Of a DNA stretch of 32,537 bases, positions 3,084 through 13,517 are shown one piece after another (the stretch's first letter is position 1; each line of letters starts with the position of its first letter). Source of the stretch: a virus; IMG/VR virus record IMGVR_UViG_3300045988_127048. One strand, 5' to 3'. A model generated the notes under the pieces. The model searched no databases, was not told the origin of the DNA, and was given only the letters and a program-made list of their open reading frames with translations. The position numbers were made by a program, and so were the translations under genes.

Positions 3084-3272
3084 ATGAAGTACAAAGAACT
3101 GCACAAGAAGCTCCGGGACGCCGGATGCTACGACACCGAAAAGGAACGGGCAGGGCATCCGCTATGGTATTCGCCGCGAACGGGCAAATACTTCACGACA
3201 AGCCACCACGGCTCGGAAGAAGTAGCGACCGGAACACTTAACTCAATCATGAAAGCGGCGGGGTTGAAATAG
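3084..3272 (+). CDS. hicA: HicA-family toxin (mRNA interferase) of a type II toxin-antitoxin pair
   Basis: 62 aa: MKYKELHKKLRDAGC...AGHPLWYSPRTGKYFTTSHHGSEEVATGTLNSIMKAAGL. This matches the HicA/YcfA pattern, including the conserved His and the GTLxSIxKxAGL tail. Confidence 0.85.
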   Translation: MKYKELHKKLRDAGCYDTEKERAGHPLWYSPRTGKYFTTSHHGSEEVATGTLNSIMKAAGLK

Positions 3273-3300: not shown

Positions 3301-3711
3301 ATGGAAACAAGGAAAGTAAAGGCAATCATTGAAAAAGGCAGAGACGGGCGATTCAGCATCTACTCGTCTGACGACACGCTCCCTTATCTGGTGACGGGGA
3401 CGGGGGCAACGATCGAGGAGGCAAGGCAGGTATTTCTTGGAGGCTATGACGACATCCGCAGGGTGTTCGCGGAAGAGGGGCGAGAATTTCCGGAGGCGGA
3501 GTTCGAGTTCGTCTATGACGTGCCCTCATTTTTGCAGGAGTTCGCGAACGTGTTCACCCTCGCCGGGCTTTCGCGCCTCACGGGTGTGAACCAGAAGCAG
3601 CTCGGGCACTACGTCAGCGGCTACAGGCATCCTTCAGCAGCGACCGCGCGCAAGATAGAGGAGGGGGTCAAGGGGTTCTGCGACCGCCTCTCAAAGGTCA
3701 AGTTCGCCTGA
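3301..3711 (+). CDS. hicB: HicB-family antitoxin (HicB N-domain plus C-terminal HTH)
   Basis: 136 aa, directly downstream of hicA. The N-terminal KAIIEKGRDGRFSIYS... resembles the HicB fold. The C-terminal FTLAGLSRLTGVNQKQLGHYVSGYRHPS is an XRE-type HTH. Confidence 0.8.
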   Translation: METRKVKAIIEKGRDGRFSIYSSDDTLPYLVTGTGATIEEARQVFLGGYDDIRRVFAEEGREFPEAEFEFVYDVPSFLQEFANVFTLAGLSRLTGVNQKQLGHYVSGYRHPSAATARKIEEGVKGFCDRLSKVKFA

Positions 3712-3894: not shown

Positions 3895-5076
3895 TCATTT
3901 GTCCCCGAGCGCGTAATCGATGACCTGCCGGTGCGCCCGGTCGACCTTGCGCAGGTCGATGGCGATATAGACGAGGGTGACGGCGGATCCGTGACTGTGA
4001 CCGAGGGCGGAGCTGATGACCTCCACGGGGATGTCCAGCTCGGCGGCGAAGCTCGCCCAGGAGTGGCGCGCCCAGTAGAAGGTCACCGGGGGGAGGCCGA
4101 GGCGTTCCGCAAGCTGCCGGAGGTGGACATTGAGGTAATTCGCCGTGCCGGTGTACTGGACTTTATGGAGCGGCGCGAAGAGCGCGCCCCGCTTGCGGTA
4201 CGGCTCCAGGACGGCGGAGAGTTCCGGCACGACCGCGACGGAGTAGTGTTTGCCGGTCTTGGCGCGGTCGTACTCGATGCGCCCGTTGACGATGGATTTC
4301 TCCGTCATCCGGGAGATGTCCACGGGGTTGGCTGCGATCATCAGGAACGACGCCTTGAAGAGGTCGAGGGCGAGGGTCTCCCCCCGTCCGCACGGTTCGG
4401 CGTTCCAGAGCTTGCGGAACTGCTCCCGGGAGAGGGAGCGCTTGCGCGTCTGGACGGTCTTCCGCTTGAGCGCCGCGAGGGGGTTGGAACTGACGAGGCC
4501 GTCGCGCTGCGCCTGGAGGAATATCGCCGAGATGCTGACGAGGAACGTGTTGCGGGTGGTCGGGGAGTACTCCTCCGTCACCCAGCTGTCGAGCCGGCGC
4601 GCCCACTGCGGGGTGAAGGCGCCGATGTCGCGCTCCGCCGCCTTGGGGTCGTAGCGATAGAGGCGGTTGAGCATCGTCCTGTAGTTCGCGGCCGTCGCCC
4701 CTTTCTTGCCGGCGACGAACCGGTCGGCGTATTCGCGGAACGGGTGCGCGGCGGCCGTGTCGCCGGAGCCCCACAGGCGCGCCCGGAAGTCGCCGGCGAT
4801 GTCTGTCACGGACATGGACTGCGCGGCCCCCGAAAGGGCCAGCTCCCGCGCCCTGTCCTCGGCGGCGATGAGCAGCTTGCCGAGCCAGGCGTTGAGGTTG
4901 CCGCGCTGCGGGTGGCGGACTATCTTCCGGGAGGGGGCGTGCCACTGGTCGGGGGCGACCTTCACGCCCGTGTCCAGGAGCGCGGTGCGGGAGTGGTTGT
5001 TAATCATCAGGCGCACGCGCCCGCAGCCGTTGGCGTCCAGCCGCCGGCCGTCATAGTAGAGCGAGATGTGTATCAT
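3895..5076 (-). CDS. int: Tyrosine recombinase / phage integrase (Bacteroidota-type, with an N-terminal arm-binding domain)
   Basis: 393 aa. The C-terminal catalytic signature is ARHSWASFAAELDIPVEVISSALGHS...TLVYI (HxxR, H, Y). The N-terminal MIHISLYYDGRR... resembles Bacteroidota integrases. Confidence 0.9.
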   Translation of the reverse strand: MIHISLYYDGRRLDANGCGRVRLMINNHSRTALLDTGVKVAPDQWHAPSRKIVRHPQRGNLNAWLGKLLIAAEDRARELALSGAAQSMSVTDIAGDFRARLWGSGDTAAAHPFREYADRFVAGKKGATAANYRTMLNRLYRYDPKAAERDIGAFTPQWARRLDSWVTEEYSPTTRNTFLVSISAIFLQAQRDGLVSSNPLAALKRKTVQTRKRSLSREQFRKLWNAEPCGRGETLALDLFKASFLMIAANPVDISRMTEKSIVNGRIEYDRAKTGKHYSVAVVPELSAVLEPYRKRGALFAPLHKVQYTGTANYLNVHLRQLAERLGLPPVTFYWARHSWASFAAELDIPVEVISSALGHSHGSAVTLVYIAIDLRKVDRAHRQVIDYALGDK

Positions 5077-10863: not shown

Positions 10864-11304
10864 ATGAAGGTGATAGGCATAGACACGGGCGTCCACACCG
10901 CGGTCGCGGTGTGGGACACCGGGGCGCAGGCCCTCGAGACGCTCGGCACGTTCCACCTCTGGGCGGCCCTCTCCTATGTGAGCCGCCTGAACGGGGGGAC
11001 GGAGGACATCCTCGTGCGCTTTGAGGACGCGCGGCAGCGGACATGGGTGCCGTGGTATCAGGAGGAGCGCCGCAACCGTGGACGGGCGCAGGGCGCCGGG
11101 TATGTGAAGGCCCACTGCGCCATCTGGGCGGAGTTCCTCAAGGACAAGGGCATCCGCCACGAGGCGATAGCGCCGAGGCGCAACGTCACGAAGCTGGACG
11201 CGGACGCCTTCCGCCGGATCACCGGCTGGGAGGGGCGGACGAACGAGCACGAGAGGGACGCGGCGATGCTGGTGTACGGCTTTGACGAGAGGAGGGCGAG
11301 GTGA
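10864..11304 (+). CDS. ruvC: RuvC-like Holliday junction resolvase
   Basis: 146 aa. MKVIGIDTG (first catalytic Asp) and ...TNEHERDAAMLV (C-terminal acidic pair) are typical of RuvC-fold phage resolvases. Confidence 0.7.
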   Translation: MKVIGIDTGVHTAVAVWDTGAQALETLGTFHLWAALSYVSRLNGGTEDILVRFEDARQRTWVPWYQEERRNRGRAQGAGYVKAHCAIWAEFLKDKGIRHEAIAPRRNVTKLDADAFRRITGWEGRTNEHERDAAMLVYGFDERRAR

Positions 11305-12047
11305 TGGAACTCAAAGGCTCGGCACACTGCTTCTTCGAGCAGTCGGGGACTTTCAAGAACGAGTTTGTCAAGCTCGGAATCCCCGCGTTCGATTACGACA
11401 TACAGGACAACTTCGGGCAGACCGACCACGTGGTTGACCTGTTCAATGAGATAGAAACCGCATACAGGGGGGGGCAAAGTGTGTTTGACAGCATAACGAA
11501 AGACGATTTGATTATGGCGTTTTTCCCCTGCATATATTTCTGCTCCATGTCACAAGTCTCGATGTTTTGGGATAATGTCAATTATAGGGGGCTGCCCTAT
11601 GAGGAACGGACGCGCCGGACGCTCGAAAGGGCTGAAAACCGCCTGCGGTTCTTCTCCCTGGCGATAAAGATGCTCACGGTGGCGAAGACAAGGGGGCTGC
11701 GGTTGATAATGGAGAACCCGTGGACGAGTTCTTACCTGTCCAACAATTTCATCCTGCCGCCGAGCGTCGTGGACAACGACAGGTCTTTGCGCGGGGACTT
11801 CTTCGTAAAGCCGACCGCCTACTGGTTCATCAACTGCGCGCCGACTCATGGTCTGACCATCCAGAAGGACAAGAAGGTGAAGCGTGTATCTGACTGCAAG
11901 AGCGCCCCGCACGCGGGCTTGTGCTCCGAAGACCGCTCGATGATTTCCCCGGACTACGCCCGGAATTTCATCCACGACTTCATCCTCGGCAAGGCGCAAC
12001 GCGGCGCGCAGCTCGATTTGTTTGACACGACAATGGCGGAGCCTTGA
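11304..12047 (+). CDS. Divergent C5-cytosine-methyltransferase-fold protein (motifs recognisable but non-canonical)
   Basis: 247 aa. FFEQSGTF sits where motif I FxGxGG would be, AFFPCIYFC resembles motif IV (PC), and LIMENPW resembles motif VI (ENV). The ATG at 11304 overlaps the ruvC stop (TGATG). Confidence 0.45.
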   Translation: MELKGSAHCFFEQSGTFKNEFVKLGIPAFDYDIQDNFGQTDHVVDLFNEIETAYRGGQSVFDSITKDDLIMAFFPCIYFCSMSQVSMFWDNVNYRGLPYEERTRRTLERAENRLRFFSLAIKMLTVAKTRGLRLIMENPWTSSYLSNNFILPPSVVDNDRSLRGDFFVKPTAYWFINCAPTHGLTIQKDKKVKRVSDCKSAPHAGLCSEDRSMISPDYARNFIHDFILGKAQRGAQLDLFDTTMAEP

Positions 12048-12055
12048 TAACAGGA

Positions 12056-12124
12056 GGGCGGGAATGGCCGCGCGGTTCGCGGCGCAAACGCAGGACAGGG
12101 GTTCGACTCCCCTCCCGCCCGCCA
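12056..12124 (+). ncRNA. tRNA-like RNA element 1: perfect acceptor stem, T arm and encoded CCA, but no anticodon arm
   Basis: GGGCGGG (12056-62) pairs with CCCGCCC (12114-20). The T arm is AGGGG-TTCGACT-CCCCT (12097-12113), followed by discriminator G and CCA. Only one 6-bp hairpin, GCCGCG-CGGTT-CGCGGC (12067-83), lies between them. About 66 nt without CCA. Confidence 0.5.
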
Positions 12125-12125
12125 A

Positions 12126-12167
12126 CTCCCGGCTGTGAAGTCCGGAGGAATGGTTTATTTGTTTGTT
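12126..12167 (+). terminator. Hairpin plus T-rich tail directly after tRNA-like element 1
   Basis: ctcccgg...ccggag stem (one bulged C) at 12126-12147, then tggtttatttgtttgtt. Confidence 0.45.
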
Positions 12168-12175
12168 ATACGCAA

Positions 12176-12265
12176 GCGGCCCGTCCGGGTTGACGGGGGC
12201 ACGGCGCTATCTGTAGCAAGCAGGTGCCGGACAACCTCCCCGGGGTTCGACTCCCCGGGAGCCGC
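12176..12265 (+). ncRNA. tRNA-like RNA element 2: the same T arm, degenerate acceptor, two extra hairpins, in the leader of the first cargo gene
   Basis: The 15-mer GGGGTTCGACTCCCC (12242-56) is identical to 12098-12112. One hairpin at 12180-97 has loop CGGGTT, and a second lies at 12202-29. Possible acceptor pairings are only 5-6 of 7. It ends 22 nt before the ATG at 12288. Confidence 0.35.
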
Positions 12266-12287
12266 CGAGACTTAATTTATAAATAAT

Positions 12288-12872
12288 ATGAAAATAGAAA
12301 TTGAAATCCCGAAAGGCTGCAAGGCAGAATGGGTGGACGGCGTGCTGGCGCTGGCTAAAAACAAAAAAGAAGACCTCCGCCCAGTGACGGAGAGAGTGAA
12401 AACCTTTGAGGACGCTGTCGCGGAACTCGGAGAGGCGCACCCTTTATGCATACACTTTCGAGAGATGTACGATAATTTCCTTTTTGAGGGCGGTGATGCG
12501 GTATCTGATATTGTCGCATACCTCAAACTTCGTATCATCATAGCGGCATTGAACGAGGGTTGGATGCCGCAGTTCATAGGCAACGAAAACAGGTATTATC
12601 CTTGGTTCGAACTATACAATGAAGAGGATTGGAACGACCTACCCCTATCCGAAGACACCAAACGAGAGCGTGGCGTTCTGCTTGACGGTAGCGTGTATAA
12701 CGGTGCGTATGGTTGCTTCGTCGGTGTGGGCGCGTACTGCATCCACTCGTATACGGGCTCTCGCCTTTGCTTTAAGACCAGGGAACTCGCCTTGTATGCT
12801 GGAAAACAGTTCGCCTCTCTCTGGTTGGACTTCCGTTATCGCCCCGACACCGAATGCAAACCAATAGAATAG
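12288..12872 (+). CDS. Hypothetical cargo protein (low-GC moron)
   Basis: 194-aa ORF, clearly lower in GC than its flanks. No motif recognised. Begins MKIEIEIPKGCKAEWVDGVLAL...KTFEDAVAELGEAHP. Confidence 0.6.
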   Translation: MKIEIEIPKGCKAEWVDGVLALAKNKKEDLRPVTERVKTFEDAVAELGEAHPLCIHFREMYDNFLFEGGDAVSDIVAYLKLRIIIAALNEGWMPQFIGNENRYYPWFELYNEEDWNDLPLSEDTKRERGVLLDGSVYNGAYGCFVGVGAYCIHSYTGSRLCFKTRELALYAGKQFASLWLDFRYRPDTECKPIE

Positions 12873-12986
12873 TCGCGCCGTGAGGCGCGGATGCCCGGAA
12901 CGCCGGATTTACGGCAGTGGTCTTCATAATGTGATTAGCGGACAGGAGGGTGGAAGCCCCTCGCCGGGTACGAACATTTTTAAGAA

Positions 12987-13517
12987 ATGAAAGAAATGGA
13001 AAAAGAAAACAAAACATTGAATCTCTGCGAGAAGCTCGCGGGGTGTCCGAAAGGGACGATGTTGTGGTCTCCGCTGTTCGGAGAGTGCGAGTTTGTAGCA
13101 CTTGGTGAAGACATGGAAACCACCTATCCTGATGAGTGTGTCGTCATCAGATGTGACGAAATGGGGCGTACCTATTTCGACAAGCACGGCCATTATTTCG
13201 ACTCCTCGGAGGAGTGCATGCTATTCCCATCTAAGGACAACCGCGACTGGGACAACTGGGAGTGCCCGAAGCCGAAAGTGGAGCGCTTTGACCCGAAAAC
13301 GTTCCAGCCGTTTGACATGGTGCTGGTGCGGGATGAGGATGACGACGACTGGGGCTGTGACTTCTTTGAACGTTTAAGAGAGGGAGGCGCGTACCGAAAT
13401 GTCACTCTTTCTACTGCGTGGCATTATTGTATCCCCTACAACGATGACACGAAGCATCTCGTAGGCTCAGCTCAAGAAGCTCCGGAGTATTACAGGTGGT
13501 GGGTGGACAAGGCATGA
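12987..13517 (+). CDS. Hypothetical acidic Cys/Trp-rich cargo protein (low-GC moron)
   Basis: 176-aa ORF, D/E-rich with a DEDDDD run, and many Cys and Trp residues. No motif recognised. Confidence 0.6.
   Translation: MKEMEKENKTLNLCEKLAGCPKGTMLWSPLFGECEFVALGEDMETTYPDECVVIRCDEMGRTYFDKHGHYFDSSEECMLFPSKDNRDWDNWECPKPKVERFDPKTFQPFDMVLVRDEDDDDWGCDFFERLREGGAYRNVTLSTAWHYCIPYNDDTKHLVGSAQEAPEYYRWWVDKA

Follow-up and report, generated by a model that had tools for sequence, protein, structure and literature searches.

Two tRNA-like elements and their surroundings

The window analysed here, i.e. the complete IMG/VR record IMGVR_UViG_3300045988_127048 with a length of 32,537 nt, belongs to a temperate gut phage that probably infects Bacteroidota and the genes of which, as in Bacteroidota, lack Shine-Dalgarno sequences. 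At the end of its replication/recombination module, the last gene of which encodes a C5-cytosine methyltransferase-like protein, two tRNA-like elements (E1 and E2) lie in tandem, separated by a spacer and followed by a phrog_11581 gene (Table 1). The methyltransferase-like gene forms part of the context and lies outside the elements; it was considered as a possible RNA enzyme and set aside, its C5-cytosine methyltransferase-like fold having no specific tie to RNA.

Table 1. Coordinates of E1, E2, the spacer and the genes discussed in the text
Feature	Position	Strand	Basis or remark
HicA toxin gene	3084-3272		
Tyrosine integrase gene	3895-5076		
Upstream gene, C5-cytosine methyltransferase-like, 247 aa	11304-12047	+	phrog_757; motifs in alignment; DNMT3-like fold, TM 0.4
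E1, 69-nt RNA resembling a tRNA top half or tmRNA tRNA-like domain	12056-12124	+	sequence, RNAfold, conservation in six related contigs
E1 acceptor stem, perfect 7 bp	12056-12062 / 12114-12120	+	GGGCGGG/CCCGCCC
E1 D-like hairpin, 6 bp	12067-12083	+	GCCGCG-CGGUU-CGCGGC
E1 GGAC motif and T arm directly 3' of it	12093-12113	+	GGAC at 12093-12096; AGGGG-UUCGACU-CCCCU at 12097-12113
E1 discriminator G	12121	+	
E1 encoded CCA	12122-12124	+	
Spacer	12126-12167	+	8-bp hairpin with one mismatch (12126-12147), GAAUGG, T-rich run UUUAUUUGUUUGUU
E2, 91-nt tRNA/tmRNA-like RNA without encoded CCA	12176-12266	+	cloverleaf-like MFE fold at these ends; conservation
E2 acceptor	12176-12182 / 12259-12265	+	C.A at 12181/12260
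E2 hairpin	12181-12196	+	CCGUC-CGGGUU-GACGG
E2 tmRNA D-loop-analogue motif	12187-12194	+	GGGUUGAC, 4 nt past acceptor strand
E2 central arm	12202-12232	+	stem CGGCGC/GYGCCG (12202-12207/12224-12229), 16-nt loop NAUCUGUAGCAAGCAG, then GAC
E2 T arm	about 12240-12258	+	
Downstream gene, phrog_11581	12288-12872	+	

The original prediction described E1 as an acceptor stem, T arm, discriminator G and encoded CCA around a 32-nt gap holding a single 6-bp hairpin, which is what the sequence reads and what RNAfold returns, with the MFE fold, the centroid and the described structure all agreeing. An anticodon arm is absent from E1, as predicted: the T arm follows position 9 after 32 nt (12065-12096), where around 40 would be needed for a cloverleaf. 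The GG in the loop of the D-like hairpin would be positioned to contact the T loop. The RNAfold z-scores against shuffled sequences were weak (-1.5 and -1.35), as expected in G+C-rich sequence. The window contains two instances of the motif GGTTCRANTCC, both in the E1/E2 region, versus 0.16 expected.

The spacer hairpin and T-rich run that follow E1 may represent a terminator or a processing site. Of the terminator originally proposed here, the hairpin is present; the terminator scan did not call it as intrinsic because the T-rich run only begins 6 nt past the stem.

E2 repeats the 15-mer GGGGTTCGACTCCCC of the E1 T arm at 12242-12256, carries a hairpin with a CGGGUU loop and has its end 22 nt upstream of the ATG at 12288, all in line with the first description. 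Its acceptor can be drawn either with 5 bp and a bulged A or with 7 bp including the C.A mismatch, and in L466 the change of A12260 to G gives a complete 7-bp stem. The motif GGGUUGAC also makes up the loop and the 3' strand of the 5-bp hairpin. E2 had been thought to lack an anticodon arm, and indeed has no canonical one, but a central arm with a 6-bp stem and a 16-nt loop does exist. This loop is unchanged across copies save for its first base (T, G or A), and its stem shows a G-U to G-C change at 12225 and, in one copy, a broken pair. No complement of the loop was found in the rest of the window, and an antisense action on a target within this phage window was therefore rejected.

Distribution and conservation of the cassette

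Together, E1, the spacer and E2 make up a cassette of around 210 bp, which is found at 94-97 % identity in six related gut-phage contigs (L001/L094, L338, L339, L342, L466/L467 and L468), so that the elements do recur in related phages. Homology sets in with the first base of E1 and stops within a few bases of E2, with different flanks, and in the relatives that keep the cassette the downstream phrog_11581 gene is replaced by other genes or by non-coding DNA.

The silent sites of the adjacent gene show a lower identity of around 85 %, i.e. 80-91 % in pairwise comparisons of four-fold degenerate sites, while E2 reaches 97-99 %. In the five copies first compared, the variable columns numbered 4/91 in E2 and 3/51 in the spacer versus 18/74 at the four-fold sites (p = 0.0003 and p = 0.007, respectively); across seven copies, 6 of the 51 spacer columns vary. 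Changes in E1 avoid the stems, with 2/36 paired versus 10/33 unpaired columns being variable (p = 0.01, seven copies), and the stem of the D-like hairpin is unchanged in all seven copies, its loop being either CGGUU or CGGCU. The least variable part of the cassette comprises the unpaired portions of E2 (1/53 columns) and the spacer (5/35 columns). The covariation that might have been expected did not appear, as none of the helices in the five-copy alignment shows a compensatory change, with 39 of the 44 pairs constant.

The high identity could stem from recent mobile spread instead of selection. The cassette is dispensable, since it is absent from the close relatives L002, L340 and L341. An analogous cassette is present in L011, where the first element has an A3-U70 pair and the second ends 2 nt before an ATG. 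We consider it likely that E1 and E2 are real, constrained RNA genes.

In the corresponding region, the related phages L032, L077 and L078 harbour tRNA arrays, and many odd tRNA-like genes are carried by related phages. When patterns of the elements were scanned for, the matches were dominated by tRNA anticodon loops in metagenomes (mostly CGC, some CGG) and by tRNA arrays in viral sequences.

Relationship to tRNA and tmRNA

A canonical tRNA or tmRNA was rejected. ARAGORN found neither in the window and, on the cassette region, gave calls only at thresholds of 85 % of the default or lower, all of them poor, while Rfam returned no match for E1 or E2 at gathering score. Under relaxed settings, the best clan match of E1 was tRNA-Sec (26.3 bits), and E2 matched mascRNA (18.9 bits). 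E1 copies without A12097 have an 8/4 acceptor/T split, and the D stem has 6 bp; a truncated tRNA-Sec or an allo-tRNA was considered for E1 and dropped, its support being limited to this 26-bit sub-threshold match. Neither element shows the canonical cloverleaf (5-bp anticodon stem and 7-nt loop) when tested against RF00005 or with ARAGORN, or the alanine identity of tmRNA (G3:U70 and A73): both have a G3-C70 pair, with a discriminator G or A in E1, depending on the copy, and C in E2. The mRNA-like domain (resume codon, tag and stop) is absent as well, E1 being too small for it. A tag reading frame in E2 was rejected, as the sole frame across the loop continues through the T arm to a stop that L342 and L466 do not keep. 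The order of the parts would also suggest a permuted two-piece tmRNA, i.e. the 3' half of E1, the spacer and the 5' half of E2, yet this was rejected because CCCGCCC and GCGGCCC are non-complementary in any register and each element closes on itself.

The original prediction of tRNA-like, non-decoding RNAs was correct, but it missed that specific hallmarks of E1 and E2 appear to point to the tRNA-like domain (TLD) of tmRNA rather than to tRNA, a resemblance newly proposed here. In all E1 copies, GGAC directly precedes the T stem, which has 5 bp and a UUCGAnU loop, whereas GGAC occupies this place in only 7 of 1092 tRNAs (0.6 %); in E2, GGAC sits 7 nt from the T stem. The 21-mer of E1 comprising GGAC and the T arm was found in 71 ARAGORN tmRNAs versus six tRNAs among 120 viral contigs, and the best blastn matches of E1 among 50,697 phage genomes were tmRNA genes. 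The six tRNA calls, i.e. five tRNA-Gly and one tRNA-Ser, are all from phages, and given these E1 may conceivably have originated from a tRNA. As for E2, the motif GGGUUGAC is found at the same offset in 29 of 39 standard tmRNAs (74 %) versus 3 of 1092 tRNAs (0.3 %), and the Rfam tmRNA consensus at the D-loop analogue reads GGaUUCGAC. In tmRNA, this analogue (GGnUUnGAC) lies 3-5 nt past the acceptor strand and has no D stem; E2 has the matching offset of 4 but is capable of forming a hairpin, and the GGUUCG-C of E1 lies at offset 11, enclosed by the 6-bp hairpin; in both elements, unlike in tmRNA, the D-loop analogue would be closed. The tmRNA bases that contact SmpB are U17, G19 and A334 (PMC8363625). 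Equivalents of all three can be read from the sequence of both E1 and E2, the G19 equivalent of E1 being predicted to be paired.

These hallmarks thereby provide a precedent, i.e. the TLD-only tmRNA of mycobacteriophage DS6A, and a candidate target, the ribosome-rescue protein SmpB. The DS6A tmRNA is described as reduced to the tRNA-like domain (Mao et al. 2009, cited in PMC4131195 and PMC11915505). A similar TLD-only molecule is reported to be a strong inhibitor of tmRNA irrespective of whether it can be charged, which may come about through titration of SmpB (PMC4131195, PMC11915505). We mapped the DS6A gene to L344:28478-28556 and found five further members of this type in IMG/VR. Like E1, they measure 65-80 nt and consist of an acceptor, a short hairpin and a T arm, with the mRNA-like part, anticodon and tag frame absent, and four of the five IMG/VR members share the GGAC before the T stem. 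At 69 nt, E1 has this architecture, while E2 is longer (91 nt) with extra segments. There are also clear differences: the DS6A family has G3:U70 and A73 and is alanine-chargeable, its D-loop analogue GGUUUCGAC is open and accompanied by a P2a hairpin with the loop AAAGCCGCACGCGG where E1 and E2 have a closed D-like hairpin, its members infect Actinobacteria instead of the probable Bacteroidota host of our phage, and the tandem arrangement is seen only with E1 and E2.

The accepted DS6A TLD-only tmRNA itself falls below the curated threshold of the Rfam tmRNA model RF00023 (34.7 versus 47 bits). On an unbiased covariance model (R2), built from DS6A and L164 without reference to E1, E1 scored 30 bits (its copies 18-30), which places it within the range of tRNAs (up to 35) and far below DS6A-family members (58-76), and E2 gave no match, aligning to the TLD models only at the T arm. 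The 40 bits of E1 on another model (R1) were discounted as circular because the 21-mer of E1 had been used to collect the training set. We read E1 and E2 as an independent, apparently non-chargeable variant rather than as members of the DS6A family.

Further likenesses concern the two-piece tmRNA of the crAss-like phage cr7_1 (L343), which matches the 3' part of E1 at 26 of 28 nt and has nearly the same T arm and acceptor strands (5' strand GGGCGUG versus GGGCGGG in E1), and the ssrA genes, in which CCA is likewise followed by a hairpin; compared with tmRNA, E1 and E2 are without the mRNA-like domain, the pseudoknots and G3:U70. With ordinary phage tRNAs and pseudogenes, E1 shares the T loop and the 7-bp acceptor, but the anticodon stem-loop is missing. 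In mascRNA, the 3' tRNA-like structures of plant viruses and YrlA, as proposed for E1 and E2, an upper tRNA half engages tRNA-processing or tRNA-binding proteins in a non-decoding molecule, and the species 1 and 2 RNAs of phage T4 are further non-decoding tRNA mimics. Sequence relationship is absent, the scores for mascRNA (18.9 bits) and Tymo TLS (13.7 bits) being far under threshold, and YrlA is the reverse of E1 in that it ends on the anticodon side with a loop-capped acceptor end. On balance, we lean slightly towards a tmRNA-related origin or mimicry for E1 and E2.

Possible roles of the elements

We tentatively propose that E1 and E2 are tandem, non-decoding, TLD-like RNA genes on a mobile cassette, which may act as decoys for a protein binding the upper half of tRNA, with SmpB as the leading candidate. 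Each element would copy this upper half, i.e. the acceptor, the T arm and a D-like hairpin able to form the elbow, and the cassette, located where the replication module ends, would pass between related temperate phages as a discrete unit of around 210 bp. E1 would be transcribed at the tail end of the early operon, with its 5' end released by RNase P, as with tRNA and tmRNA precursors, and its 3' end made by trimming to the encoded CCA, upstream of the spacer hairpin; E2 would be freed likewise, the CCA then being added by the host enzyme. AlaRS requires a G3:U70 pair. Having neither this pair nor an anticodon, E1 and E2 would therefore neither decode nor be alanylated; they would instead bind SmpB and damp host trans-translation. 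SmpB titration as their function is suggested by analogy, and we put it forward as possible, with considerable reserve.

Alternatively, as also suggested originally, the elements may mainly be RNase P and RNase Z cut sites that detach the downstream genes from the early transcript, leaving the downstream mRNA with a short A/U-rich leader and the small RNAs as by-products, which we consider unlikely. RNase P and RNase Z require only the upper half of tRNA, and a free lower half would suit such enzymes. The positions fit as well: E1 begins 8 nt past the upstream stop codon whatever the context, in four contexts the next start codon follows 13-22 nt past the end of E2, the second element of L011 stops directly before its ATG, and the genes lack Shine-Dalgarno sequences. 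However, in L342, L466 and L468, E2 is followed by different, mostly non-coding sequence instead of a start codon, and neither the near-invariant E2 loops and spacer nor the need for two elements nor the retained tmRNA motifs would be explained.

It is less probable still that E1 and E2 are functionless, decaying remnants of a phage tRNA/tmRNA gene pair, with an apparent conservation due to recent recombinational spread. The anticodon, a tag frame and compensatory changes are all absent, single copies carry lesions (G2U in the E1 acceptor of L342, CCA to CAA in E1 of L466 and an A.C mismatch in the E2 T stem of L468), close relatives lack the cassette, and odd tRNA-like genes abound in related phages. 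Against decay, which the original prediction had listed for tRNA genes, stand the far lower variability of the cassette compared with neighbouring silent sites and the avoidance of stems by changes in E1; moreover, in different contexts the cassette begins and ends exactly where the RNAs do, and both acceptor stems and both T arms are intact despite the loss of internal parts.

A mimic or decoy, also raised originally, is still the leading class of explanation, but the targets then named, i.e. HicA or a tRNA-targeting defence, find no support. The elements would in that case be sponges for an RNase or modifying enzyme attacking the acceptor/T-arm half, such as the phage HicA or a host anti-phage nuclease, and we hold this to be quite improbable. 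The same genome does carry a HicA toxin gene, HicA has been reported to cleave tmRNA besides mRNAs, and it is known that phages use tRNAs of their own against defences that target tRNA. Yet the cut made by most known defence nucleases acting on tRNA falls in the anticodon loop, which is precisely what E1 and E2 are missing.

There is very little to recommend a chiefly cis-regulatory role of E2 and the spacer as late promoter, operator or leader at the level of DNA or nascent RNA, in which the tRNA look would be secondary. Conservation within the cassette is highest in the unpaired parts of E2 and the spacer, and the site lies between the early and downstream modules, where lambdoid phages have their late control regions. 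However, a sigma-70 scan of the spacer found no promoter-like site (nor was a Bacteroidota -7 motif clear by eye), the 16-nt loop has no complement in the window, and a T arm of perfect tRNA consensus flanked by complementary acceptor strands would be needless for a DNA site.

Finally, the phage is temperate and encodes a tyrosine integrase, and integration commonly takes place at tRNA and tmRNA genes. Still, the attachment-site remnants suggested at first, i.e. copies left over from such a gene of the host, can practically be dismissed: the integrase gene lies 7 kb away, each element has both acceptor strands and not the 3' part alone, position 70 of E1 is C, not U, which prevents E1 from being or replacing a tmRNA 3' end, the 3' half of E1 (GGTTCGACTCCCCTCCCGCCC) is shared by none of the tRNAs or tmRNAs in 2.9 million viral contigs, its T arm with the acceptor strand occurs in no viral contig except the homologous phage, and the E1 hairpin-to-T-arm and E2 loop-to-T-arm patterns are absent from 185,579 species genomes.

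Returning to decoys of an upper-half binder, one may speculate, with due caution, that temperate phages of gut Bacteroidota carry non-chargeable TLD copies as sponges for SmpB or another such protein, shutting down ribosome rescue during infection or lysogeny, and that E2 adds a tRNA-scaffolded, invariant 16-nt loop with a target of its own. Under this sponge reading, the analogous cassette of L011 would widen E1 and E2 into a so far undescribed class. Upper-half-only tRNA-like RNAs in phage genomes escape the standard tRNA, tmRNA and Rfam tools. If E1 and E2 do bind SmpB, they would represent a natural RNA inhibitor of trans-translation, a pathway pursued as an antibiotic target, borne by phages of dominant gut bacteria, and the DS6A curiosity would become a recurrent viral strategy that is independent of aminoacylation.

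Two tRNA-like elements in a temperate gut phage

The cassette of about 210 bp consists of two elements, E1 (69 nt) and E2 (91 nt), separated by a 51-nt spacer. Reading the sequence of 12056-12266 and folding E1 with RNAfold bore out how this stretch had been described, i.e. the minimum-energy fold and the centroid structure of E1 both comprise acceptor stem, hairpin and T arm, and the 32 nt from position 9 to the T arm contain a single 6-bp hairpin with a CGGUU loop. The original prediction that both elements lack an anticodon arm holds; E2 does have a central arm, but of another kind than an anticodon arm, and its minimum-energy structure (folded at 12176-12266) is a cloverleaf in which this arm stands beside a 5-bp acceptor stem, a 5-bp D-like hairpin and a T arm of 7 bp. 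The hairpin after E1, proposed as part of a terminator, lacks the textbook form and was not called by a terminator scan.

ARAGORN called neither a tRNA nor a tmRNA in the window, and Rfam gave no match at curated thresholds, i.e. no canonical cloverleaf with an anticodon was called by either; at relaxed Rfam thresholds, the best matches were tRNA-Sec for E1 (26.3 bits) and mascRNA for E2 (18.9 bits). The T-loop consensus GGTTCRANTCC has two sites in 32.5 kb (0.16 expected), one in E1 and one in E2. Their sequences suggest that the two elements are paralogues: they share the octamer GC(A/C)GGACA, and E2 differs in having 8 nt inserted ahead of its T stem.

The window is a temperate phage from a human gut metagenome. 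A Bacteroidota host is probable and fits despite a G+C content of 64%, since start codons mostly lack a Shine-Dalgarno sequence and lie in A-rich leaders. The hicA gene and the following HTH protein gene, beside the integrase, are likely a hicAB-type module carried by the phage. The gene directly upstream of the cassette encodes a very short C5-cytosine methyltransferase-like protein (motifs FEQSGTF, FPC and ENPW) with no sequence match in Pfam, NCBIfam or PDB; DNMT3 catalytic domains come nearest to its predicted fold (TM about 0.4), and its homologues abound in gut phages (>5800 at E <= 1e-60). In related phages, the homologue of window gene 12987-13517 is preceded by a conserved non-coding block of ~320 nt, of which the window retains only the last ~130 nt because gene 12288-12872 replaces the remainder; the blocks of L340 and L342 had no Rfam match.

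Table. Features of the window and of compared contigs (L-numbers)
Feature	Position	Details
hicA (HicA toxin gene)	3084-3272	adjoins integrase region
HTH protein gene	3301-3711	
Integrase	3895-5076	minus strand; Phage_int_SAM_5 domain
Repressor-like HTH gene		in window
Replication/recombination module		exonuclease, Gam-like protein, DnaD-like protein, SSB, Holliday-junction resolvase
C5-methyltransferase-like gene	11304-12047	247 aa
E1	12056-12124	acceptor stem GGGCGGG/CCCGCCC; T arm AGGGG-UUCGACU-CCCCU; discriminator G; encoded CCA
E2	12176-12266	second copy of 15-mer GGGGTTCGACTCCCC; hairpin CCGUC-CGGGUU-GACGG; 3' end 22 nt before ATG at 12288
Terminase	from 17867	
Non-coding block	window 12874-12999; L342:3517-3840; L339:4236-4562; L002:2187-2491; L340:1974-2252; L001:5189-5404	
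DS6A TLD-only tmRNA gene	L344:28478-28556	79 nt; G3:U70; A73
DS6A-type TLD-only tmRNAs	L462:9494-9571; L396:7265-7342; L422:2421-2498; L385:4819-4897; L164:2458-2534	IMG/VR; all G3:U70
Analogous two-element cassette	L011:2423-2689	another gut phage
Long tRNA-like genes	L024:2861-2984; L056:1960-2082; L059:2499-2667; L075:1405-1511; L079:1528-1652; L080:1033-1146; L040:1346-1475	107-169 nt
Minihelices	L217:10731-10771; L201:242-290; L175:590-646; L137:9152-9202	41-57 nt; encoded CCA in two

Likeness to the tRNA-like domain of tmRNA

When searched by blastn against all phage genomes, E1 mainly returned tmRNA genes and not tRNAs, i.e. tmRNAs of mycobacteriophages and Streptomyces phages and the permuted tmRNAs of the crAss-like phages cr7_1 and cr124_1 (26/28 nt). 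The tmRNA of cr7_1 has GGGCGUG as its acceptor 5' strand and GGACAGGGGUUCGACUCCCCUCACGUCCA as its 3' piece, the counterparts in E1 being GGGCGGG and GGACAGGGGUUCGACUCCCCUCCCGCCCG; these differ only in that U6-A67 is replaced by G6-C67, a compensated change, and that U70 is lost. The annotated permuted tmRNA of cr7_1 (L343:540-903) overlaps at its 3' end an annotated tRNA-Cys(aca), which appears to belong to the tmRNA region and not to be a gene of its own.

An E1 21-mer retrieved 120 viral contigs, with 71 tmRNAs and six tRNAs (five tRNA-Gly, one tRNA-Ser) called by ARAGORN and tmRNA-type CUCC-A ends in most of the remainder. As in E1, GGAC immediately precedes the T stem in 7 of 1092 tRNAs. 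E2 carries GGGUUGAC, a motif of the Rfam tmRNA consensus, 4 bases past the acceptor strand; the motif has this offset in 29/39 standard tmRNAs versus 3/1092 tRNAs. On sequence grounds, E1 probably acts like, and derives from or mimics, the tRNA-like domain (TLD) of tmRNA; it may instead have a tRNA origin, e.g. a tRNA-Gly with an identical GGAC-plus-T-arm. Both elements fail the defining alanine identity because of G3-C70.

A ‘TLD only’ tmRNA has been described for mycobacteriophage DS6A in tmRNA database papers (PMC4131195; PMC11915505). According to these papers, which cite Mao et al. 2009, a similar molecule strongly inhibits tmRNA whether or not it can be charged, perhaps by titrating the ribosome-rescue protein SmpB (PMC4131195; PMC11915505). 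The DS6A gene scores 34.7 bits with RF00023, and among five more such RNAs in IMG/VR contigs the P2a helix shows a full compensatory change (L462 versus L422).

Membership of E1 in the DS6A family was rejected: with an unbiased model (R2) built from DS6A and L164, members score 58-76 bits and E1 copies 18-30, within the range of tRNAs (up to 35). E2, judged by its sequence more divergent still, had no match with R2. Another model (R1) gave E1 40 bits and tRNAs at most 27.8, a score we discount because its training sequences were retrieved with E1's own motif.

A rare and bounded cassette

The cassette is rare. Two patterns did not find it in 185,579 species genomes and IMG/VR holds it in one contig (L001, the same as L094), while five further distinct copies (L338, L339, L342, L466/L467 and L468) were reached in Logan and ENA assemblies via homologues of the upstream protein. 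Homology between all copies begins at E1 base 1 and stops within a few bases past the E2 acceptor strand. An additional 69-aa ORF lies before E1 in L001, L339 and L468, different genes precede a truncated methyltransferase gene in L466, three different sequences follow E2, and the cassette is missing from the close relatives L002, L340 and L341. Given its sharp borders, differing flanks and absence from these relatives, the cassette behaves as a discrete accessory unit. In L342 (3285-3310), a deletion at a short microhomology joins the small ORF seen before E1 in L001 and L339 to E1 itself, turning acceptor base G2 into U.

Pairwise identity is 94-97% in the cassette and 80-91% at four-fold degenerate sites of the adjacent gene. 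In five copies, 18/74 four-fold columns vary, compared with 4/91 in E2 (p = 0.0003) and 3/51 in the spacer (p = 0.007); for E1 (10/69) the difference is not significant. With seven copies, variable columns of E1 number 2/36 paired versus 10/33 unpaired (p = 0.0098), and E2 shows the opposite trend (5/38 versus 1/53). Since variation in E2 falls mainly in paired columns, either constraint at sequence level acts on its loops or its structure model is incomplete. No helix in the E1 and E2 copies has a compensatory double change; among 44 pairs in the five-copy alignment, 39 are invariant, three have G-U in place of G-C or A-U, and two are each disrupted in a single copy. One change is informative, i.e. 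the C.A of the E2 acceptor is C-G in L466. The high conservation may also have come about through recent spread.

Candidate function and similar RNAs in other phages

In every context, the first base of E1 lies 8 nt past the stop codon that comes before it. E1 would be transcribed as part of the early operon, its 5' end freed by RNase P and its 3' end trimmed to CCA; E2 would be processed likewise before CCA is added, and neither could be expected to take part in decoding or to accept alanine. Both elements have counterparts of the SmpB-contacting bases U17, G19 and A334 (PMC8363625), that of G19 being predicted to be paired in E1. Titration of SmpB is the leading specific hypothesis, albeit a tentative one. 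As rival explanations, the elements may be processing or punctuation signals, neutral remnants, or decoys for HicA or defence nucleases, and E2 with the spacer may have a cis-regulatory role; that they are remnants of attachment sites is very unlikely.

The cassette is genuine, has defined borders, is conserved and had so far gone unannotated. Its elements are best filed as a phage TLD-only tmRNA-like RNA, a class assignment with predicted function only, set apart by the missing alanine identity, closed D-like hairpin, tandem arrangement and probable Bacteroidota host.

In L011, the first element of the analogous cassette matches the tmRNA model over its full length (RF00023, 23.6 bits) and has A3-U70, ACCA and 44 nt where the mRNA part would be; a hairpin follows, then a tRNA-like second element (39.3 bits to Rfam tRNA) whose anticodon region contains an insert of 41 nt and which ends 2 nt before the next ATG. 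Related phages contain long tRNA-like genes, none called by ARAGORN and several directly 5' of a gene, in which acceptor stem and T arm are intact, the D arm is recognisable in several and 30-100 nt of unrelated sequence replaces the anticodon arm. Minihelices of acceptor stem and T arm, with neither D nor anticodon arm, occur within phage tRNA arrays. Taken together, these three kinds suggest that RNAs which reproduce just the upper half of a tRNA and do not decode recur in phages and mostly escape standard tools.
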